This document shows, one piece after another, positions 15,271-37,245 of a stretch of 64,000 nucleotides of DNA (position 1 is the first letter of the stretch; each line of letters opens with the position of its first letter). The position numbers and the translations under genes are program-made. Below the pieces are notes generated by a model. It ran no database searches, was not told where the DNA came from, and saw only the letters and a list, made by a program, of their open reading frames with translations. Source of the stretch: an uncultured Acidobacteriota bacterium (GTDB lineage: Bacteria; Acidobacteriota; Thermoanaerobaculia; Multivoradales; UBA5704). The stretch spans positions 1,312,001 to 1,376,000 of the forward strand of contig CAVYRF010000001.1 of the NCBI GenBank assembly GCA_963770895.1, given 5' to 3'.

Positions 15271-16446
15271 CTACGGGCCGAAGTGGCGCGGCGTGCAGGC
15301 GCTGTCGTAGCGCACGGCGTTGTTGCCCAACGTCAAGCTGCTGGACACCGTCCACGACTCCATCACCCACGCCTGGGCGACGGTGGAGTCGAACGGCGGG
15401 TCCGGTATGCCGGAGACGCTGTTGTTGAGGTCGAGGTAGTACCAGCCGGATGTGTAGGGCGTGGGCAGCGCCGAGCTGCCGACGACGACCTTCTGCGCCA
15501 CGGCGGGGAAGGGCTTGGTGGACAGCAGGCTGTAGGCGCCGGCGTCGGAGATGGCGTAGGCGGACTCCTGGCCGAGGGGATACCACGTCGGCAGGGTGCC
15601 GCAGGTAAAGGACCCCTGCGCCACCTTGGAGTCGCGCCAGACGATCAGCGAAGTGCCGGCCGGCACGAAGCGGGCGGCGAAGATGGTGGCCAGCGGCTCG
15701 CGGTTGTCGACCGCCGTCCAAGCGTCGTACTCACCGTAGAAGGTGTACTTGCCGGAGGTGGAGGTGCTGGCGTTGGTGCTGTCGGCGACGATGTGGACCA
15801 GCGGGTGGTTCTCCGACAGGTTGGTCGAGGTGGTGACGTATTGGAAGTCGCCGAACAGCGAATTCTGATTCGCGAAGATCGCCGAGCCGCCGGCAGCGAA
15901 TACGCCGGGGTCGGTCTGGATCTCCAGCGTGCAGGAGTTCACCGTGTCGAACGTGACGTAGCCGCGGGCCACGGTGTCGCCCAGGTAGCGGCCGCCGCAC
16001 TTGCCGCTCCACAGCGGGCTGGCCTGGCCGAACAGCGCCAGCTGGTAGTTGTCGATCTGCGTGCCGGTGAGGTTGGCCGGCGGCAGAAATCCCGTGCACG
16101 AGCTATACGACGCGGGGGCGCTGGTCGACGGCAGCACGCCGCGCTCCAGGATGTCGCGCATGTTGAAATGGATGTCCTGATAGGGGTTCAAATAGAAATC
16201 GAAGCTGAACACCGGCACCCCCAGGTCGGTCCACACCACCGCTTCGACCAGGGCGCCCGAGCCGAAGGCGTTGCCGACGGTGACCTGGGTGGTCCTGCCG
16301 GTGCTGGTGCTCAGGTCGACCTCGAAGTAGGGCAGCAGCAGCGTTGCCGCCGGGGTTTCCTGGATGGCGCAGGCGTCGAGCGCCGAGCCGGTACGGCAGA
16401 CGATGGCAAACGCGAACGTCGCCAGAGCGATCGCTTTACGATTCAT
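15271..16446 (-). CDS. Secreted Cys-containing hypothetical protein ('PAATLLLPYFEVD' type)
   Basis: AGGAGG RBS before the ATG at 16446; signal peptide; beta-rich sequence with several Cys; strong coding codon bias. Confidence 0.75.
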   Translation of the reverse strand: MNRKAIALATFAFAIVCRTGSALDACAIQETPAATLLLPYFEVDLSTSTGRTTQVTVGNAFGSGALVEAVVWTDLGVPVFSFDFYLNPYQDIHFNMRDILERGVLPSTSAPASYSSCTGFLPPANLTGTQIDNYQLALFGQASPLWSGKCGGRYLGDTVARGYVTFDTVNSCTLEIQTDPGVFAAGGSAIFANQNSLFGDFQYVTTSTNLSENHPLVHIVADSTNASTSTSGKYTFYGEYDAWTAVDNREPLATIFAARFVPAGTSLIVWRDSKVAQGSFTCGTLPTWYPLGQESAYAISDAGAYSLLSTKPFPAVAQKVVVGSSALPTPYTSGWYYLDLNNSVSGIPDPPFDSTVAQAWVMESWTVSSSLTLGNNAVRYDSACTPRHFGP

Positions 16447-16611
16447 GAGTCGCCTCCTCCTTGGTAATCGGCGGCGCCGATGGCGCCGCCGCCTGAAACC
16501 TTGCGAACCGGCAGGGAGGCAGGCCGCGACGTGGCTGCCGCTCAACCGCTCCCGATCCGGAGATGCGGAGATAGGCGGCCGGCGGGGACAGGATGTTACG
16601 GCGGAGGAAGG

Positions 16612-25527: not shown

Positions 25528-28500
25528 TCAAGCCTCCTGGCTGGCGGGCCTGGTCTTGGCCTGCGGCCGGCGATGCCGGCCGCGCAGCCGCTCCCAGCGC
25601 AGCCGGAATCGATCGAGATAGAGATAGACCACGGGAGTGGTGTACAGGGTCAACGCCTGGCTGAACAGCAATCCGCCGACGATCGAGATGCCCAGCGGGC
25701 GGCGCAGCTCGGCGCCGGTGCCGCGGCTGATGGCGAGCGGCAGGCCGCCCAGCATCGCCGCCATGGTGGTCATGGTGATCGGCCGGAAGCGCAGCAGGCA
25801 GGCCTGGAAGATCGCCTGCTCGGGGGATTTGCCGCTCGCGTTCTTCCTCGATCGCAAAATCGATCATCAGGATGGCGTTCTTTTTGACGATTCCGATGAG
25901 CAGGATGATGCCGATTAGGGCGATGACCGATCAGTTCCGTGCGGGTCACCAGCAGCGCCAGCAGCGCGCCGACGCCCGCCGACGGCAGCGTCGACAGGAT
26001 GGTGATCGGGTGGATGACGCTTTCGTACAGCACGCCCAGCACGATGTAGACCGTCACCAGCGCCGCCGCGATCAGCAGCGGCTCGTTGGCGAGCGACGCC
26101 TGAAACGCCTGCGCCGTCCCCTGGAAGCTGCCGCGGATGTCGGAGGGCAGTCCGATCTTGCGCTCCGCCTGTTCGATCGCCGTCACCGCCGGCCCCAGCG
26201 CCTGGTTGGCGGGCAGGTTGAACGAGATGGTGACCGATGGGAACACGCCGGAATGGTTGACCGCGAGCGAGGTGGTCGACGACGCGTAATGGGTGAAGGC
26301 GGACAGCGGCACCAGCGTCCCGTTCGGACTGTTGGCGTTCCTGCCCTTGACGTACAGGTAGCGCAGCCCGTCGGGATTCTGCCAGAACTGCGGCGCCACC
26401 TCCATCACCACGTGGTACTGGTTGAGCGGCTGAAACATGGTCGAGACCTGCCGCTGGCCGAAGGCGTCGTACAGCGTGTCGTCGATCGTCTGGGCGCTGA
26501 TCCCCATGCGGGACGCGGTGGAGCGATCGATCACCAGCGACGATTCCAGCCCGCGGTCCTGCTGGTCGGTGTTGACGTCGGCCAGGATCGGCAGCGCGCG
26601 CAGGGTCTGCAGCACCTTGGGCGCCCAGCGCAGCAGCTCGTCGGTGTTGTCGCCCTGCAGGGTGTATTGATATTGCGCGGCGCTCGCCCGGCCGCCCACC
26701 CGCAGGTCCTGCACCGGTTGCAGATAGAGGTTGAGCCCCGGCACGCGCGCCAGGTGCGGGCGCATCCGGGCGATGATCTGGTCGGCGTTCAGATTGCGCT
26801 TGCCGCGCTCGCCCACCGCCTTCAGGTTGACGAACATCCGCCCCTGGTTGACCGCCTGGCCGCCGATGAAGGCCGACACCGAATCGACCGCCGGGTCTTT
26901 TTGCACGATCCCGACCATGGTGGCAAGACGCGTCTTCATCGCCTGGAACGAAGTGTCCTGGTCGGCCACCAGCTGGCCGGTCAGGCGCCCGGTGTCCTGC
27001 TGCGGGAAAAAGCCCTTGGGCACGGCGATGTACAGGTACACCGTCGCCGCCATGGTGAGGATCGTCACCATCAAAGTCAGCGGCTGGTGGCGCAGCACCC
27101 AGGCGAGCGAGGCGCGGTAGCCGCTGAGGATGCGCTCGAATCCCCGTTCGCTCAGGTTGTAAAGCCGGCCGTGCCGCTCGCCGGCGTGCTCGCGCAGCAG
27201 GCGCGCGCACATCATCGGCGTGGTGGTCAGCGAGATGACCAACGACACGGCGATGGCCACCGACAGGGTGACGGCGAACTCGCGGAACAGCCGGCCGACG
27301 ATGCCGCCCATCAGCAGGATGGGGATGAACACCGCCACCAGCGAGATGCTGATCGACATGACGGTAAAGCCGATCTCCGCGGCGCCGCGCAGCGCCGCTT
27401 CGTGCGGTTTCATCCCCGCCTCCAGGTGGCGGGTGATGTTTTCGATCACCACGATGGCGTCGTCGACGACGAAGCCGGTGGCGATGGTGAGCGCCATCAG
27501 CGACAGGTTGTCGATGCTGTAGCCGCACAGGTACATGATGCCGAAGGTGCCGATCAGCGACGCCGGCACCGCGACGCTCGGGATGAGCGTGGCGCGGACG
27601 TTGCGCAGGAAGACGAACACCACCAGGATCACCAGGATGATCGAGATGGTGAGCGTCCGTTCGACGTCCTTGACCGAAGCGCGGATGGTGCGCGTGGCGG
27701 TCGATCAGGACGTCGAGCGAGATGACCGGCGGCACGGACGCCTGCAGTTGCGGCAGCACCGCACGCACGCGGTCGACGGTGTCGATGATGTTGGCGCCGG
27801 GCTGGCGGAAGATGATGATCGATGACGGCGGGCTTGCCGTTGGTGAGGCCGCCGGTGCGGATGTCCTCTACCGAATCGATGACGCTGGCGATGTCCGACA
27901 GGCGCACCGCGGCGCCGGTAGTGCGGTTGTAGGCGACGATCTGCGGCTGGTATTCGACCGCCTTGAGCAGCTGGTCGGTGGTGCTGATCGACCAGTTGCG
28001 CCGCATGTCGCCGACCGCCCCCTTGGGGTTGTTGGCGTTGGCGCTGGCCAGCGCGGCGCGCACGTCTTCCAGGCTCAGCCCCTTGGCGTTGAGCTCGGTG
28101 GGGTTGACCTCCACCCGCACCGCCGGCAGCGCGCCGCCGCCGACGATGACCTGGCCGACGCCGCGGCACCTGCGACAGCTTCTGCTCCAGGATGGTCGAG
28201 GCCAGCGTCGTAGATCCGCCCCCGGCTCACCATGTCGGACGTCAGGCGCCATCAATCATGATCGGCGCGTCGGCCGGATTCACCTTGCGGTACCAGTGGG
28301 TTGGAGGGCAGGTTGGTGGGCAGCTGGCCGCGGGCGGCGTTGATCGCCGCCTGGACGTCGCGCGCCGCGGCGTCGATGTTGCGGCTGAGGTCGAACTGCA
28401 GGGTGACCGCGGTGGCGCCCAGCGTGCTGGACGAAGTCATTTCCGTGACGCCGGCGATGCGGCCGAACTGCCGTTCGAGCGGCGTGGCGACCGACGAAGC

Positions 28501-28678
28501 CATGGTCTCGGGGCTGGCGCCGGGCAGCGACGCCTGACACGCTGATGGTGGGAAAGTCGACCTGCGGCAGCGGCGACACCGGCAGCACGGTGTAGGCGAT
28601 GGCGCCGGCCAACACCAGCGCCACCGTCAGCAGCGTGGTGGCGATCGGCCGCTCGATGAAGGGAGTCGAGATGCTCAT
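25528..28678 (-). pseudogene. mdtC: Multidrug RND transporter MdtC, multiply frameshifted (probably sequence errors)
   Basis: Starts [17 protein letters not shown]; [24 protein letters not shown] and ACLLRFRPI lie in different frames. Confidence 0.85.
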
Positions 28679-31600
28679 GCGTTGGCCCCCTCCGCCGGCT
28701 GCAGCCGCCCGGCTTCACGCTCCTGCCGGCGCCGGCTCATCCGCCGCGCTAGGCGATCGAAGGCCAGGTAGATCGACCGGCGTGGTGAACAGGGTCAGCA
28801 CCTGGCTGAAGATCAGGCCGCCGACGATGGCGATGCCCAGCGGCCGGCGCAGCTCGGCGCCGATGCCGCTGCCGAGCGCCAGCGGCACGCCGCCCAGCAG
28901 CGCCGCCATGGTGGTCATGACGATGGGGCGGAAGCGCAGCAGGCACGCCTGGTAGATCGCCTCTTCCGGCGCCTTGCCCTCCTTGCGCTCGGCGTCGAGC
29001 GCAAAGTCGATCATCATGATGGCGTTTTTTTCGACGATGCCGATGAGCAGGATGATGCCGATGAGCGCGATGACGCTGAAGTCGGCGTGGCACAGCATCA
29101 GCGCCAGCAGCGCGCCGACGCCGGCCGACGGCAGCGTCGACAGGATGGTGAGCGGGTGGATGTAGCTTTCGTACAGCACGCCCAGCACGATGTACACCGT
29201 CACCACCGCCGCCAGGATCAGCAGCGGCTCGTTGGCCAGCGAGGCCTGGAACGCTTCGGCGGTGCCCTGGAAGCTGGCCTGGATGCTGGCAGGCATGGCG
29301 ACCTCCTGCTGCACCTTGTTGACGGCGTTGACCGCTTCGCCGAGCGCGGCGCCGGGCGCCAGGTTGAACGAGATCGTGGTGACCGGGAACTGGCCCTGGT
29401 GGTTGACCGACAGCGGCGTGTTGGCCTGCTCGAAGCGGGTGAAGGCGCTCAGCGGCACCGACCCGCCGGTGGCCGACTGCAGGTAGAGGTTGCCCAGGTC
29501 CTGGGGCTTGTTCTGGAAGTCGGGCTGCGCTTCCAGGATCACGTGGTACTGGTTGAGCTGGGTGAACATCGATCGAGACCTGGCGCTGGCCGAAGGCGTC
29601 GTACAGCGCATCGTCGGTCATTTGCGGCGTGATGCCCAGGCGTGAGGCGGTGTAGCGGTCGAGGACCAGCCGCGCCTGCAGGCCGTCGTTCTGCTGGTCG
29701 CTCGCCACGTCGCGCAGCTCGGGCAGCGCCTGCAGCTTGGCGACGAACCTGGGCACCCAGACCGCCAGCTCGTCGCCGTTGGGGTCTTCCAGGCTGTATT
29801 GGAACTCGGTGCGGCTCACCCGGTCCTCGACGGTCAGGTCCTGGATCGGCTGCATGAACAGGGTGATGCCGTCCACCTTGGCCAGGCTGGTCGACAGCCG
29901 CCGGATGATGTCGCTGGCGCTCGACGCTGTCGCGCTCGTCGAGCGGCTTGAGGTTGATCTGAATGCGGCCGCTGTTGAGCGTCGTGTTGGTGCCGTCGAC
30001 GCCGATGAAGGACGACAGGCTCTCCACCGCCGGGTCTTCCAGGATGACGTTGGCCAGCGCCTGCTGGCGCTCGGCCATGGCGGGGAAGGAGATCGATCTG
30101 CGCCGCCTCCGAGATGCCCAGGATCACGCCGGTGTCCTGCACCGGGAAGAAGCCCTTGGGGATCCATGATGTAGAGCAGGATCGTCAGCACCAGCGTGGC
30201 GACGGCGACGACCAGCGTCGCCGGCTGGTGGCGCAGCACGACGCTGCAGCGTCGCGGCCGTAGAAGGCGATGATGCGTTCGAACACCCGCTCCGAGGCGC
30301 GGTAGAAGCGCCCCTGCTCGGACGGTTTTTTGTGGCGCAGGAGCTTGGCGCACATCATCGGCGTCAGGGTCAGCGACACCGACCGCCGATACCAGGATGG
30401 TGACCGCTCAGCGTCACCGCGAATTCGCGGAACAGGCGGCCCACGATGTCGCCCATGAACAGCAGCGGAATCAGCACCGCGATCAGCGACACGGTGAGCG
30501 ACAGGATGGTGAAGCCGATCTGCTCCGATCCCTTGAGCGCCGCGTCGAGCGGCCGCATCGCCCTCTTCGATGTAGCGCGATGATGTTTTCGATCATCACG
30601 ATCGCGTCGTCGACGACGAAGCCGGTCGAGATGGTCAGCGCCATCAAGCGTCAGGTTGTTCAGGCTATAGCCGAGCAGCGTACATGGCGGCAAAGGTGCC
30701 GACCAGCGACAGCGGCACGGCGACGCTGGGGATGATGGTGGCGGCCAGGTTGCGCAGAAACAGGAAGATCACCATCACAACCAGGGCGATGGTCAGCAGC
30801 AGCTCGAACTCGCACGTCCGCCACCGAGGCGCGGATGGTGATGGTGCGGTCGGTCAAGGTGGTGACCTTGATCGCCGCCGGGCAGCGAGGCGCGCAGCTG
30901 CGGCAGCAGCTTGTTGACGCGGTCCACCACCGAGATGATGTTGGCGCCCGGCTGGCGCTGGATGTTGACGATGACCGCCGGCATCTTGTTCATCCAGGCG
31001 GCCAGCTTGACGTTCTCGGCGGCATCGACGACGTTGGCGACGTCCGACAGGTGCACCGGGTTGCCGTTGCGGTAGGCGATGATCAGCGGCCGGTAGTCGG
31101 CGCTGGTCAGCAGCTGGTCGTTGGCGTCGATGGTGTAGGACTGGCGGCTGCCGTCGAAGGTGCCCTTGGCCTGGTTGACGGTGGAACCGGTGATGGCGGC
31201 GCGGATGTCCTCCATGGTCAGGCCGTAGGACGACAGCCGCGGTGGGGTTGACCTGGATGCGCACCGCCGGCTTCTGACCGCCGCTGATGCTCACCAGGCC
31301 GACGCCGGGCAGCTGCGAGATCTTCTGCGCCAGGCGGGTGTCGGCAAGGTCCTCGACCTTGGCCAGCGGCAGCGTCGCCGACGTCAGCGCCAGCGTCATG
31401 ATCGGCGCGTCGGCGGGGTTGGTCTTGCTGTAGATCGGCGGGTTGGGCAGGATCGCTCGGCAGATAGGTGCCGGCGGCGTTGATGGCGGCCTGCACCTCC
31501 TGCTCGGCGACGTCGATGTTCAAGTCCAGGGTGAACTGCAGGGTGATGATCGAGCTGCCCTCGGAGCTGGTCGAGGTCATCTGGTTGAGCCCCGGCACCT

Positions 31601-31817
31601 GGCCGAACTGCCGTTCCAGCGGCGCGGTCACCGCCGAAGCCATGACGTCGGGACTGGCGCCGGGATAGAACGTCACCACCTGGATGGTGGGGTAGTCCAC
31701 TTCCGGCAGCGCCGAAACCGGCAGCTGGCGGAAGGCCACGATGCCCACCAGCAGCAGTCCCGCCATCAGCAGCGACGTGGCGATGGGCCGCAGGATGAAC
31801 GGGCGCGACAGGTTCAT
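28675..31817 (-). pseudogene. mdtB: Multidrug RND transporter MdtB, multiply frameshifted (probably sequence errors)
   Basis: Starts [34 protein letters not shown]; fragments spread over several frames; ATGA overlap with the mdtC start. Confidence 0.85.
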
Positions 31818-33091: not shown

Positions 33092-33619
33092 CGTTGGGCC
33101 TCGAAGGCTTGAAAAAGCTGGTTGTTCGTGCCGCGCAGCTCCGTGACGGAATGGTCTGCGCGAGCCCCAGGTACGGCTGGGGGCGAAGGCGCGTGCCGGC
33201 AGCGCCGCGCCGGCACAGATCACTGGTTGTTGATAACGCTGTTTGCGTCGGGAAAGTTCCGCCACCGCGACGCCTGCCGCGTGACGATCCTACATCACCC
33301 GCTGCACCCGCCCAGGGTGTCCTATCCGAGGGGTCCGCAAGGCGCGGGTCCGCGCCGGCCGGACCGCCGCGCGGCGCCGCGGCCGCGCCGCGTCGCACGG
33401 CAGGGAGCCCTTGCGGGCAGTTAGCTCGCGATTGTTTCAAGAGAGACGCCCGGGCCCCACAAAAGGCCGGTAGAAATGACGACGGACGGAGGTTTGATGG
33501 TGACCTCCGGTTGGCGAAACCTCGCCCCGGCGGCCGTCATCGATGAATGTAGGACGGCTCTGCGCGGGCTGCCGGATGCCATGGCGACATCCGACCCGTC
33601 CGCGATGAAGGAGGTAGTT

Positions 33620-34021
33620 ATGAAGTGTTTTCGACCCTTGCTGCTGGCTGTCATCCTCGGCGTCTTTTTCAGCGGCTTGACGGTGCCCGCCGCTCAGGCT
33701 GGCACGATCCAGGCGGCCTCCGCCGCCGATCTCAGCTTCGGCTCCCTCCTGGGAGGCTGGGTCGGCGCCTGGCTTTGGGGGCATGACGCGACGACGGGCA
33801 GGACCGGCGCCGCGGCTGCCAGGGCCGCCGCATCGGCCGCGCCGGTCCGGTCGGCCCCGGCAGTCAACAGCGTTGCGGTGCCGCAGGCCTCCGCCTTGCG
33901 GCCGGCGCCGGGCGGCAGCATGCCGCGTGGCGAGGGCCGTTTGCACGCGGTCGGCGCCGCGCCTCCGCGCCTCAGGCCGCTCTGCACCGGCCCGACCGAG
34001 CCGAACGGCGAATGCGGCTAG
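33620..34021 (+). CDS. Small secreted peptide-like protein with C-terminal CxxxxEPNGxC motif
   Basis: AAGGAGG RBS; signal peptide ending AQA; amphipathic 'LLGGWVGAWLWG'; Ala/Pro linker; C-terminus LCTGPTEPNGECG. Confidence 0.7.
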   Translation: MKCFRPLLLAVILGVFFSGLTVPAAQAGTIQAASAADLSFGSLLGGWVGAWLWGHDATTGRTGAAAARAAASAAPVRSAPAVNSVAVPQASALRPAPGGSMPRGEGRLHAVGAAPPRLRPLCTGPTEPNGECG

Positions 34022-34068
34022 GGGAGTGATGCGCCGCTGAGACGTGATGACCCATGTTGGCTGTCTCG

Positions 34069-34103
34069 AGGGGGGGAATAAAAGCCCCCCCTTGCTTTCT
34101 TTT
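34069..34103 (+). promoter_or_regulatory. Inverted repeat AGGGGGGG-N8-CCCCCCCT plus T-rich tail (terminator and/or operator)
   Basis: Perfect 8-bp stem between the peptide gene and the TPR gene; followed by tgctttctttt and an extended -10-like TGGCAGAAT. Confidence 0.55.
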
Positions 34104-34154
34104 GCAATCAATGGATGGCAGAATGGACGCCGCGTTCGCGGGAGCTTTCCACGC

Positions 34155-35462
34155 GTGAGCGAACACCTCTCCTCGGAAGATCGATGCCGCCTTGCAAAGG
34201 GCACGCTGCCTCGCCAGCGGTGTCAGCAGGTTTTGCGCCACATCCTGCGCGCCTGCCCGACCTGCTCGCGTGCCCTGGCCGCGTATGGCGGCTTCGCGCT
34301 GGACGAATTACCTGAAGACGCTTACGATGAAGTGGTGACTCGCGTCACCAATCAGGTATCGCAGTTGGCGGTCGCGCACCAGGAAGCGGTCGGCACCCTG
34401 ACGGCTCTGCTTGCGGGCGACCGTGCCTGGAACGACCTCTCAACCGCCGACCTTGCCCTGCTGCGCGGCCTGCCGCGGCTTGGCGCGCTGCTGGATGCGG
34501 GCTGGTCGCTGCGCCATCGCGACCCGCAATCGACGCTGCGCTTTGCCAGGCTCGCCCGCTACGCCGCGGATCGGCTCGACTCCAAGCAGCTGGCTGCCGA
34601 ACCGGTTGCCGATCTGCGCAGCCTGGCCTGGGCCGAGCTGGCCAACGCCTACCGCATCAACGCCAACTTCCCGCGCGCGACGCGGGCGATGAACCGGGCG
34701 ATCTACTGGTTGCAGCGCGGCTCCCAGGACAGCCTGCTGGTGGTGCGGGTTGCCGATCTGCTGGCCTCCCTGCTCGTCCATCAACGGCGATGGGACGAAG
34801 CGAAGCCGCTGTACCAGATGGTGTTTCAAGCGCACTTGAACGAAGGCCGGTTCCATCTGGCGGGGCGTGCCCTGATCAACGCCAGCTTCCCTGAACCGCC
34901 CGAAAAGGCGTTGCCGCTGCTGCGCCGCGGGCTCAACCTGCTGGACCAGGAGCGCGATCCGGAGCTGGTCGGCCAGACGCTGCACGCCATGATCTGGCGG
35001 CTGAGCGACATGGGGCGGTTCCGCACCGCTCGCCGCCTGCTGTGGCGCAGCCGGGCCCTGATCGAAGGCGCCGCGGCGCCGCTGCGCATCCGGTGGCTGG
35101 ATGGCAAGATCTATGCGGGCCTGGGGGATCTCGGCCGGGCTGAAGAGACGCTCAAAGCGGTGCGCGCCGGTTTCGCGGAGCAGCAACAGGTGTATCCGGC
35201 GGCGATGGTCGGCCTCGAGCTGGCGGCGCTCTGGGCGCGTCAGGGGCGCGTCGATGAGATCTATGAGCTGGCGCAGGAGATGATCGCCACCTTCCGGGCG
35301 CTGCGCGTGGCGCGGGAAGCCATCGTGACGCTGCTCATCCTGCAGCGCGCCTGCCTGGCCGGCGGCGGCAGGCTGCTGGAGATCATCGACATGGTGGGCA
35401 GCTTCCTCAAGGAGCTGGAAGAGCAGGCCCCGGCAAGGCGGCAGCGACCGGTCGAAGACTGA
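34155..35462 (+). CDS. TPR-repeat protein with N-terminal zinc-binding anti-sigma-like (ZAS / zf-HC2-like) motif
   Basis: GTG start after GGGAG; 'EHLS...RHILRACPTC' (H-x4-C-x2-C); helical repeats (AWAELANAYRI..NF..A; IRWLDGKIY.GLG....AE). Confidence 0.8.
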   Translation: MSEHLSSEDRCRLAKGTLPRQRCQQVLRHILRACPTCSRALAAYGGFALDELPEDAYDEVVTRVTNQVSQLAVAHQEAVGTLTALLAGDRAWNDLSTADLALLRGLPRLGALLDAGWSLRHRDPQSTLRFARLARYAADRLDSKQLAAEPVADLRSLAWAELANAYRINANFPRATRAMNRAIYWLQRGSQDSLLVVRVADLLASLLVHQRRWDEAKPLYQMVFQAHLNEGRFHLAGRALINASFPEPPEKALPLLRRGLNLLDQERDPELVGQTLHAMIWRLSDMGRFRTARRLLWRSRALIEGAAAPLRIRWLDGKIYAGLGDLGRAEETLKAVRAGFAEQQQVYPAAMVGLELAALWARQGRVDEIYELAQEMIATFRALRVAREAIVTLLILQRACLAGGGRLLEIIDMVGSFLKELEEQAPARRQRPVED

Positions 35463-35484
35463 ACCCCGCTGCTGGACGATCGTC

Positions 35485-35554
35485 GGGCGATGGACGGCGG
35501 ACGCCAAACAACGGGCGGCGGACGGCGGACGGCGGACAACGAGCGCTGGACGGG
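35485..35554 (+). repeat. Heptamer tandem repeat, about 10 degenerate units of GGACGGC
   Basis: gggcgat ggacggc ggacgcc aaacaac gggcggc ggacggc ggacggc ggacaac gagcgct ggacggg, between convergent genes. Confidence 0.7.
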
Positions 35555-35577
35555 GCGGGCGCCCGCAGCGGCGCAAA

Positions 35578-36063
35578 TCAGGATTCGTCGTCGGGGTCGT
35601 CGCGCGGAGTGCCGCGGTTGGCCGCCGCGATCTCTTTCTTGCTCTCCTGCCGGCGGCGCTCCAGGACCCGGTTGACGGCGTCTTCCACCAGGTGGTCGAA
35701 CTCTTCGGGCGAGGCAGGGTCGATCTCGTCGACCGGCACAAATTCGCCGCGGTAGCCGGCGCGCTGAAAAGCGGCAAAGAAGTCGCCGGCGGCGGGATGG
35801 GCCCGCGCCGCCGACCGCTTGGGACGGGCGGCGATGTTGAAGAACTCTTCCTGCGACAGCCCGATGATGCGCAGGATCGCCAGCACGTGCTTGAACTTGA
35901 GATCCACGTGACCGCTGAAGATGCGACGCAGTGCCTTCGGTCCGACACCCAGCCGCCGCTCGACTTCGCTGACAGTGAGGCCGGCCGCACGAATCGCCTG
36001 TCGCAACAGGCTGGCGTAGCGTCGAACCTCGTCGTCAATCTCCGGCAGCTTTTCGCTCATCAT
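35578..36063 (-). CDS. XRE/Cro-C1 HTH transcriptional regulator
   Basis: 'LRQAIRAAGLTVSEVERRLGVGPKALRRIFSGHVDLKFKHVLAIL..IG....EFF'. Confidence 0.85.
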   Translation of the reverse strand: MMSEKLPEIDDEVRRYASLLRQAIRAAGLTVSEVERRLGVGPKALRRIFSGHVDLKFKHVLAILRIIGLSQEEFFNIAARPKRSAARAHPAAGDFFAAFQRAGYRGEFVPVDEIDPASPEEFDHLVEDAVNRVLERRRQESKKEIAAANRGTPRDDPDDES

Positions 36064-36185
36064 CTACGTATTGTACAGGATTCTGCCCCCCAAGGGGCGT
36101 TTTTCTAGCCAGTCCTCTGCACGGACCGCGCCCCGGGCCTGGGCGGGCCGTGTCGTGTTGTGACGATCCGTCGTCGCCGCGGCGT

Positions 36186-36328
36186 ACCTGCGCCGCTCGA
36201 CCTTGCCCACGGTGAGGCCGGCGGCGGGAAGCACGCCGTGGACCTGCCAGACGGTGAGCTGGGGTGCCGTCGCGATCATCATCTGCGCATTATACAGTAT
36301 TCTGTCCGCGCTGGGGCTTTTTCTAGCC
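36186..36328 (-). pseudogene. Degenerate duplicate of the HTH gene's promoter and 5' end
   Basis: 36277-36328 aligns with 36058-36110. Translation contains AAGLTVGKVERR vs AAGLTVSEVERR in the intact gene. Confidence 0.75.
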
Positions 36329-36552: not shown

Positions 36553-37245
36553 TCAGGAGGGATTGCGCGGGGCGTAGAAGACGTACACGGCGCGGTACTC
36601 GACGTCCTGCAGTGCGCCGGGGTGGGCGGCGTCACAGCCGGTGGCGGGGGCGACGCCGCCGACGGTGTCGACGCGCTGCACGTACTGGACGCCCGCGAGC
36701 TTCCCCTGGCCGCTCGATTCCACCTCCACCAGCAGCCAGGGCACGGCGTCGAATTGCAGCGCCGGCGTGGTTCCAAGCACTTTTTTCTTGACCACCTTGC
36801 TGCCGTCGGCAAGCTGCCAGGACGGCCCGGCAAAGTGGGTGCCGATCTCGCGGTTCTGATCGTCGTTGAGCTTGGCAACCGGTTCCTTGAGCGTCCATTC
36901 GAAGGTGCCCGCGGCCTGCGCCTTCGGGTTGCAGACGTAGCGCTGGACTCCCTGGCCGTACGCCACCAGGATCGGCCTGACGCTGGCGGGCGGGTCCAGC
37001 TTCGGATCGGGCATCACCGGGCGGTACAGGCCGTCGCGCGGCGTCCCCGTCCACGGCTGGCCCGAGGGTGCCTGCGCGCCGGCCGGCGAGGCGGCGAACG
37101 CAAGCAGGCTGAGCGTCGCGATCAAGGCCGCCCCTGCCGCAATAATGGTCGCTCCTGCCGCAGATGCTGCCCGCGGCGCCCCTGCCGCCGTCCCTGCCGT
37201 TGCCGCCCTTGCCGTCCGTGCGGCCCGGTTGTGTGCGCGCCCCAT
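36553..37245 (-). CDS. DUF3455 domain exported protein
   Basis: GAGGAG RBS; G.GVQ.Y.C, IG.HF.GP.W...DGS.V, AVPWLL, VQRVDT.GG.AP...C, Y.A.Y.FY. Confidence 0.85.
   Translation of the reverse strand: MGRAHNRAARTARAATAGTAAGAPRAASAAGATIIAAGAALIATLSLLAFAASPAGAQAPSGQPWTGTPRDGLYRPVMPDPKLDPPASVRPILVAYGQGVQRYVCNPKAQAAGTFEWTLKEPVAKLNDDQNREIGTHFAGPSWQLADGSKVVKKKVLGTTPALQFDAVPWLLVEVESSGQGKLAGVQYVQRVDTVGGVAPATGCDAAHPGALQDVEYRAVYVFYAPRNPS

Follow-up and report, generated by a model that had tools for sequence, protein, structure and literature searches.

The window analysed here, a 64,000-nt stretch of the genome of an uncultured Acidobacteriota bacterium (8.2 Mb, 95% complete; the window lies on contig C1), carries a three-gene cassette: a gene for a small precursor predicted to be secreted (33620-34021, +), a gene for a tetratricopeptide repeat (TPR) protein (ending at 35462, +) and a convergent gene for an XRE-type helix-turn-helix (HTH) regulator (36063-35578, −). 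This cassette is real, conserved, previously undescribed and expanded within its lineage. A preliminary description, made from the letters of the DNA, had pointed to a secreted 133-aa open reading frame (ORF) with a Trp-rich helix, a linker and a Cys-loop C-terminus, a G7/C7 inverted repeat, a TPR protein with an H-x4-CxxC motif and a convergent XRE-HTH gene, all of which are present. It had also placed the supposed circuit outside Firmicutes, in Acidobacteriota, and record titles indeed assign the related cassettes to Thermoanaerobaculia of this phylum. The host genome encodes BamA and is therefore that of a diderm. The protein-coding features are as follows.

33620..34021, +: precursor gene, 133 aa, with predicted Sec signal peptide, Trp-rich amphipathic helix, variable linker and C-terminal two-Cys loop
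33620..33700, +: predicted signal peptide (residues 1-27), a hydrophobic stretch ending AQA-G, with an A-x-A cleavage site
33737..33781, +: Trp-rich amphipathic segment (residues 40-54); W47 and W51 each kept in at least 90% of 23 close precursors
33983..34015, +: core C122-x5-PNG-x-C132, with E127 before Pro; predicted disulfide loop and candidate mature signal
34155..35462, +: soluble ZAS-like/TPR protein, candidate receptor, 435 aa, GTG start
34155..34289, +: ZAS-like three-helix domain with candidate zinc ligands H4, H29, C34 and C37 (H29-x4-C34-x2-C37)
34467..35420, +: TPR superhelix of eight helical hairpins (residues 105-422) in an AlphaFold2 model
35578..36063, −: convergent gene for an HTH regulator of the XRE family, 161 aa, whose C-terminal helix pair is conserved; PF01381/HTH_3 at 29.8 bits (cut-off 23)

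To describe conservation we used 152 loci, which are the best matches to the window receptor and hence biased to its subfamily, and a non-redundant set of 120 loci with receptors less than 90% identical. The preliminary description had named beforehand the peptide and HTH neighbours of TPR homologues as a test that could refute it; the peptide neighbour is kept, and so, in most loci, is the HTH neighbour. A precursor with the strict [DE]P[ND]G motif lies upstream in 85 of the 104 loci with at least 600 nt of upstream sequence. A covariance model of the peptide-gene leader, run on 18 of the 19 remaining loci (all but L038), found variant x-P-x-G precursors in 11, so that an upstream precursor is present in 96/104 loci in total and the C-terminal motif, whose conservation had been anticipated, is kept in these as x-P-x-G. 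The precursor reading frame of L022 continues without a nearby stop. The gap between precursor and TPR genes has a median of 121 nt (89 loci) and is about 134 nt in the window. A convergent XRE gene is found in 63 of the 95 loci with enough downstream flank, that is, in 22/27 close, 11/11 intermediate (33/38 for these two nearer groups combined) and 30/57 distant loci, the last being a count from a profile built from the host genome, which may miss distant XRE genes. In the host genome, a [DE]P[ND]G tail is carried by 37 ORFs, 17 of which end within 1.5 kb of one of 50 TPR paralogues, compared with a background of 3.0% (2186/71938) of comparable ORFs, among which overlapping frames are not independent.

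The TPR family is large and narrowly distributed. An iterated TPR profile detected 84 ORFs in the host genome, of which 50 score 150 bits or higher. The zinc motif is present in 18 of these 50 paralogues and an N-terminal XRE domain in 19 others, and this alternation of ZAS-like and XRE N-termini on one TPR family matches the modularity known between Rap and PlcR/NprR. Some other TPR paralogues have two N-terminal XRE domains, and XRE domains flank the TPR region in those at G000 C2 5559264-5561789, 4274306-4276666, 1822242-1824275 and 1905118-1907214. The approximately 50 paralogues per genome include tandem clusters and broken copies. Of 31 genomes from the genus, family and order, 27 contain members of the TPR family; of 151 drawn from the whole phylum, 3 do, each belonging to the same order (at most 11 candidates were scored per genome). 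Among the genomes searched, the TPR family is thus largely confined to one Acidobacteriota order. The family profile gathered 1713 clusters (50% identity) at E ≤1e-30. A phage origin was considered and rejected, since neither 50,697 phage records nor the IMG/VR candidates retrieved with three short patterns yielded any relatives. In the literature, mostly that outside subscription journals, we found no description of this ZAS-TPR/peptide family and nothing linking RRNPP, or DPNG signal-peptide proteins, to Acidobacteria; the broader literature on peptide circuits concerns Firmicutes. Likewise, no group with such architecture was found in the available portions of the literature on extracytoplasmic function (ECF) sigma factors.

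The precursor ORF has a G+C content of 0.86 at third codon positions (GC3), and its linker in the window copy is made of Ala/Pro. Precursors of the family are 59-144 aa long (median, 107 aa; at most 100 aa in 35/89). By a hydrophobicity heuristic, a signal-like core is present in 83/85 strict-motif precursors; an A-x-A type site occurs in 83/89 precursors and a lipobox in 0/89, while the Trp pattern is seen in 61/89. Residues A27, C122, P128 and C132 are invariant among the 23 close precursors. The two-Cys loop is present in 28/28 close, 11/12 intermediate and 18/54 distant strict-motif precursors (the distant ones scored by a loose pattern), and also in five close variant precursors recovered by the leader model, which brings the close clade to 33/33. 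The close group forms one clade (39 rows, support 100) in a FastTree phylogeny of 117 receptors, and the two-Cys loop is a trait of the receptor's clade.

The interior of this loop is hypervariable. In 11 cassettes with receptors 84% identical, the loop interior shares 27% identity and the linker 58%, and the nine residues through the first Cys share 88% and the motif 100%. In ten near-identical cassettes, nonsynonymous divergence (pN) amounts to 0 for the motif, 0.075 ahead of the loop and 0.44 within it; synonymous divergence (pS) in the loop is 0.52. By these codon comparisons, purifying selection within the precursor C-terminus acts on the motif and Cys alone, and the loop, with pN/pS of about 0.84, is free of it; a claim of positive selection on the loop was dropped on the same ratio. 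The peptide loop of the window copy is short. Several precursors contain 2-4 tandem cores, each behind the same preceding stretch, as proteolytic release would lead one to expect. One such gene, L159:4643-4149 (−) (G000 C1 ~2039148-2039575), encodes a precursor of 141 aa whose three Cys-loop units stand in tandem, each after V-[RK]-P-Q-A-T, and sits between two XRE-TPR fusion genes. The leader model also detected host-genome precursors ending D-P-Y-G-G, which escape the DPNG pattern, at L161:13815-13888 (−), L164:6706-6779 (−) and L164:7303-7375 (−).

The receptor gene most likely starts at GTG 34155, a position backed by the database gene call and by the starts of homologues. The longest frame, from 34044, was rejected because it would read through a terminator hairpin and because relatives start at the 34155 position. 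A hydrophobic 19-residue segment is found in 0/117 receptor-family proteins; the receptor is therefore predicted to be cytoplasmic, and a membrane-spanning topology like that of DdvA was rejected. The earlier suggestion of a ZAS-like domain is supported by a profile of the first 45 residues (70 members), which matches DdvA (E 3e-5), RslA (8e-5) and ChrR (5e-3); zf-HC2 is matched by 14/70 members, the window protein not being among them. The zinc motif is present in 108/120 loci, with the x4 spacing in 100 of those, and H4, H29, C34 and C37 are conserved at 88-96% in 75 distant members. An ESM Atlas search with receptor residues 1-100 gave nothing beyond leads at 0.80-0.81.

The AlphaFold2 model of the receptor (pLDDT 85, pTM 0.73) comprises three short helices, one helix of 34 residues and eight hairpins. 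Pfam TPR_12 matches the window receptor at E 1.5e-4, and 65/100 members match at 0.01. In the Foldseek ranking, LGN comes top and the Rap proteins begin at rank 21 (E 4e-4). A VIA-align comparison covering Foldseek's top 1000 gave Z scores of 21.1 for LGN, 20.0 for Rap of phi3T (root-mean-square deviation (rmsd) 4.2 over 295), 19.6 for NprR, 19.1 for RapF and about 17 for AimR, which agrees with the TPR protein of peptide-receptor type proposed before. Rap and NprR come within ~1.5 Z of the best match. The predicted fold is thus a superhelix of the peptide-binding type, a likeness that is not proof of descent from RRNPP. In the 75 distant members N164 and R167 are 98% conserved. Variation among 11 near-identical receptors is highest at residues ~244-252 and 275-283, at the end of repeat 4 and in helix A of repeat 5, and from TPR geometry these variable helices are expected to line the groove; the window receptor has short deletions near the ~244-252 site and before repeat 6. 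No CHAT domain was matched in scans of the receptor family, and domain, profile and model searches of the 435-aa protein found no toxic or enzymatic domain. A co-prediction of the receptor (1-425, 100-row alignment), peptide 102-133 (23 rows) and zinc scored 0.27 against a mark of 0.32; it lacked folded controls and is counted neither for nor against.

The co-evolution of peptide and TPR protein that had been suggested was approached by similarity matrices of 44 complete trios. Correlations are 0.61 for receptor-XRE, 0.38 for receptor-core and 0.23 for XRE-core; the partial correlation (r) is 0.26 for receptor-core, with XRE and signal-region similarity removed, and -0.03 for XRE-core. This co-variation of receptor and core is suggestive only, as linkage and kinship inflate the values.

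A model of the XRE protein and a fold search gave a domain of the C-protein/lambda-repressor type (rmsd 1.4-2.0 Å, ~67 residues, E 0.01). Relatives have a fourth gene, which the preliminary description had missed: among loci with at least 1250 nt upstream, a second XRE gene diverges from the peptide gene in 21/24 close, 9/9 intermediate and 16/49 distant cases, often backed by a gene for another TPR protein. Between the divergent XRE gene and the peptide gene, relatives conserve two palindromes, GGTCA-N5-TGACC and GATGAG-N5-CTCATC, which may be operators. This arrangement of divergent XRE gene, TPR-like gene and palindromes is seen in L082, L083, L084, L112 and others, 200-1800 nt 5' of the peptide start. 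In the window, neither a remnant of the divergent XRE gene nor the palindromes were found between the efflux gene and the peptide gene, as read from the window assembly; near-identical short contigs of one sequencing run, possibly of the source sample, do not bridge 33119-33672. Since the fourth gene and the palindromes are gone and the flanking synteny is shared (an efflux operon upstream and a DUF3455 gene downstream are common to the window and relatives), we regard the window cassette as a reduced orthologue. A closely related cassette at G000 C2 1551900-1554230 has pieces of a second XRE and a second TPR gene and is apparently broken by frameshifts, with no precursor recognised.

Further features around the three genes concern their expression.

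33563..33604, +: hairpin in the 5' leader RNA of the peptide gene, immediately before the ribosome-binding site, conserved as judged from covariation and a covariance model
33610..33614, +: Shine-Dalgarno GGAGG of the peptide gene, from sequence and conserved in the leader alignment
34067..34104, +: G7/C7 inverted repeat (34067-34094) with pyrimidine tail, a terminator-like end of the peptide transcript
34107..34124, +: promoter-like element of extended -10 type, ~30 nt before the TPR start, conserved in relatives and diverged in the window copy
36070..36099, −: upstream region of the XRE gene, with -10-like TACAAT and a short GC inverted repeat, conserved in close relatives
36191..36327, −: second, decayed copy of the promoter region and first codons of the XRE gene, as direct repeats 78-80% identical in alignment

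In 55 leaders, 85% of 651 cells of the leader hairpin are paired, with 42 double changes and many G-U pairs. Its covariation is 0.28 versus at most 0.14 for slid controls, a comparison that favours the structure because it was derived from those same sequences. The covariance model recovers held-out precursor genes. Rfam gave no match for the hairpin, RNAalifold no consensus structure on the gappy leader alignment, and the window hairpin alone is no more stable than shuffles (z +0.3). A sequence-only leader profile found two precursors and two unrelated sites in the host genome. A weak match to the leader model at 16444-16505 (−) of the window (E 0.014), before an unrelated signal-peptide protein, may be due to chance.

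The preliminary description had noticed the G7/C7 repeat and missed its role as a terminator before the TPR start. The hairpin (-20.9 kcal/mol, z -2.5) scores as an intrinsic terminator; 18 relatives keep a hairpin of differing sequence at this position, and 5/7 consensus pairs show double changes. The 14-nt extended -10 pattern occurs in 70 of 183 loci of a redundant set, and the window copy gave no match with one mismatch allowed. A Gibbs search for motifs in the sequences upstream of 47 diverse precursors brought out neither a promoter nor an operator common to the whole family. A -10-like hexamer lies 6-9 nt before the XRE start with no ribosome site, which suggests a leaderless XRE mRNA. 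Because of the terminator, the separate promoter-like elements and this leaderless-type start, the peptide, TPR and XRE genes are likely to form three transcription units. The GC inverted repeat at 36084-36099, followed by a T run on the + strand and kept 5' of XRE in close relatives, may serve as an operator or may halt antisense transcripts that run through the XRE gene. The duplicate at 36191-36327 holds a perfect TATAAT and could give a second, upstream transcript into the XRE gene. The 265 bases 36064-36328 thus consist of the XRE upstream region and its decayed duplicate and hold no additional gene; a 91-aa ORF (36339-36064) was rejected as a gene, having no family match and no paralogue and lying on the decayed duplicate.

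Beside the cassette, RND efflux permease genes (25770-31817, −) are divided among several frames, a pattern resembling either indel errors from long-read assembly or decay, and the adjoining membrane-fusion gene (33091-31814) is intact. A DUF3455 secreted-protein gene (36553-37140, −) lies 3' of the XRE gene and is syntenic in five close loci. The chromosomal neighbours of the window cassette are kept across the genus. In the flanks of the 120 loci (up to ~4 kb, often shorter), the recurring neighbours are the second XRE, the second TPR protein and genes of genus-level synteny.

Intracellular peptide sensing by TPR receptors has been described for Firmicutes and mobile elements; as far as the available part of the survey goes, a propeptide of 10-100 aa with a Sec/SPI signal, a receptor of 250-500 aa, TPRs and a gene gap of -60 to 400 bp define RRNPP systems, and the scan covered Firmicutes and viruses with a TPR cut-off of 1e-5 (PMC10075063). 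Measured by these partly available definitions, the window cassette agrees in receptor size (435 aa), TPRs (eight hairpins, Z ~20-21) and adjacency (~134 nt). A Sec signal is likely by the heuristic, with hydrophobic core and A-x-A conserved and no lipobox. It departs in propeptide size (133 aa versus 10-100 aa) and in its host, a diderm of Thermoanaerobaculia, and its TPR_12 match (E 1.5e-4) is weaker than the survey cut-off. Because of the precursor of 133 aa and because no sequence match was found, we do not file the cassette as RRNPP.

Like Rap/Rco/Phr* of Bacillus plasmid pLS20 (PDB 6t46, 6t3h), the cassette sets a small precursor of predicted Sec type beside a predicted cytoplasmic TPR protein that has no DNA-binding domain of its own, with a separate XRE-type regulator and fold Z scores of 16.5-20.0 to Rap proteins. 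Unlike Rap-Phr, it has a diderm host, an upstream peptide gene with its own terminator and a 133-aa precursor with amphipathic helix, linker and two-Cys loop, and its receptor carries a zinc-type N-terminal domain in place of the Rap three-helix bundle, with no sequence match found. The XRE-TPR fusions (19/50 host paralogues) recall NprR-NprX, PlcR-PapR and AimR-AimP (Z 19.6 for NprR, ~17 for AimR), whereas the window receptor has a ZAS-like domain instead of an HTH and is only a putative peptide binder. With DdvA (8rlz), RslA (3hug) and ChrR (2q1z) it shares three short helices, four candidate ligands and profile matches of E 3e-5 to 5e-3, and with RslA the ligand order H-H-C-C, according to the part of the source available (PMC11506125). 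It differs from these three by one extra residue between His and the first Cys in 100/108 family loci, and from ZAS anti-sigmas in that no cognate ECF sigma gene adjoins the window receptor; zinc and sigma binding are candidate properties. DdvA is described in the same available part as membrane-spanning with a periplasmic TPR-CHAT region (PMC11506125), whereas the window receptor has no membrane helix or CHAT, and its TPR region is predicted to be cytoplasmic. Soluble anti-sigmas occur in ten ECF groups, and the ZAS-TPR architecture is not described in the accessible portion of that work (PMC7826278).

Some further likeness is found with the autoinducing peptide of the staphylococcal agr system, a small thiolactone ring whose variable interior defines specificity groups. 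The candidate signal is likewise a small ring with a variable interior, although it differs from agr by a predicted disulfide, a Sec signal peptide and an intracellular receptor, with no AgrB-like or histidine-kinase gene among the recurring neighbours.

We interpret the three-gene cassette, with moderate confidence, as an RRNPP-like peptide circuit belonging to a diderm lineage within Thermoanaerobaculia. The precursor would be exported by Sec, and the disulfide would form in the exported peptide; the host genome encodes a DsbA-like thioredoxin. Cleavage behind the conserved hydrophobic-R/K-P-x stretch, ahead of the first Cys, would give a short looped peptide, which may re-enter the cytoplasm via an oligopeptide permease, of which the host genome has one Opp/Dpp-type set (binding protein and two permeases). 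The signal may act mainly on the producer or close neighbours, and less as a pheromone that diffuses far, because a loop of 11-16 residues is large for passage through porins. The peptide would dock in the groove of the membrane-free TPR protein, where the constant [DE]P[ND]G turn would be read by the conserved groove residues N164, R167 and R120 and the variable loop would set specificity. The signal would then be relayed via the long helix 54-87 to the zinc domain, which would free or retain a transcription factor. The partner is most likely the cassette XRE protein, in a role likened to that of Rco for Rap of pLS20, or may be an ECF sigma factor encoded elsewhere. The output through a sigma factor proposed in the preliminary description finds no local support: the host genome has 50 sigma70-family matches, the closest ~49 kb from the cassette, and a sigma gene is adjacent in three paralogous loci. 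That RRNPP-analogous reading as a whole is supported in part: conserved linkage, motif, ZAS-like domain and TPR fold agree with it, and the return of the processed peptide and its binding in the TPR groove are inferred.

The circuit is favoured by the linkage of the genes and their genome-wide pairing, the soluble receptor with its fold like that of peptide-binding TPRs, the exchange of ZAS-like and XRE domains, the confinement of purifying selection to motif and Cys, the position of the receptor's variable sites, the tracking of the receptor by core similarity, the tandem cores, and the Opp/Dpp-type set, BamA and DsbA-like thioredoxin of the host. Several observations weigh against it. The precursor of 133 aa, and also the family median of 107 aa, exceeds known propeptides. 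All of the roughly 20 precursors would depend on a single permease set, and the 95%-complete host genome yielded no SbmA/BacA. The cytoplasm would reduce a disulfide loop. Among the 120 loci, clustering and sequence searches found no conserved maturation enzyme, exporter, protease or transporter as neighbour, and no sigma gene lies within ~49 kb of the window cassette. A sequence-profile search against solved RRNPP receptors (E 0.1) and NCBIfam models gave no match; the best structural matches are to eukaryotic LGN, tied with Rap, and the fold is generic. Linkage alone would produce mirror-tree correlations, which kinship inflates, and the pairs are not independent. Relaxed constraint accounts for the loop variability as well as diversifying selection does, because pN/pS of the loop is ~0.84. 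Finally, the window copy may be partly decoupled, because it has neither the divergent XRE gene nor the palindromes.

Some of these difficulties are sidestepped if the TPR protein senses export status or envelope damage by binding the motif on unexported precursor or on fragments leaked back across a damaged inner membrane, since no dedicated re-import would then be needed in a diderm; the free thiols on a tail that stays inside could also vie with the ZAS-like domain for its zinc. The conserved Trp-rich amphipathic helix could tether the precursor at the membrane, the conserved neighbours include no protease, and in close relatives the cassette is syntenic with an RND efflux operon. This sensor is nevertheless unlikely in our view, as it leaves unexplained the dozens of paralogues with distinct loops and the tandem cores with repeated preceding stretches, and many distant precursors have no Cys (loop in 18/54).

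A shade less probable again is that the small protein is an output controlled by XRE, such as a surface, antimicrobial or kin-recognition peptide, and that the ZAS-TPR protein senses another cytoplasmic cue, for example redox or a protein tail. Its own leader hairpin, terminator and operator-like palindromes mark the peptide gene as a separately regulated unit, the TPR fold is generic, and ZAS domains respond to oxidation, as stated in the available part of the DdvA study (PMC11506125). However, core similarity tracks the receptor rather than XRE, the pairing persists with ZAS-TPR and XRE-TPR fusions and with a separate XRE or none, and the motif is invariant while surface-type residues drift. 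A selfish or defence module spreading by duplication, an addiction or abortive-infection switch in which loss of a short-lived peptide frees a harmful TPR or XRE activity, would suit the many paralogues with their tandem clusters and broken copies and the control of a defence island by DdvA, the nearest solved ZAS relative (PMC11506125, in the part available), but it is very improbable: no relatives were found in the phage records or the pattern-selected IMG/VR candidates, the window locus retains its chromosomal neighbours genus-wide, and the 435-aa protein showed no domain of toxic or enzymatic type.

What the present analysis adds to the preliminary description is the Cys loop found throughout the clade, with a hypervariable interior, together with the leader hairpin and the absence of the fourth gene. 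Only tentatively do we extend the RRNPP-like circuit to a broader and rather doubtful proposal, that a diderm lineage independently evolved a large peptide-pheromone language with dozens of cytoplasmic TPR receptors per genome, each reading an exported peptide of its own, disulfide-loop pherotypes in the clade of the window receptor and zinc anti-sigma output to ECF factors or XRE. If the peptide circuit is true, it would raise the question of how a looped peptide re-enters the cell, and the near-identical cassettes with differing loops would supply a ready-made matrix for testing specificity with synthetic peptides. TPR-based sensing of peptides inside the cell would then extend to cells with an outer membrane, with an output of zinc anti-sigma type.

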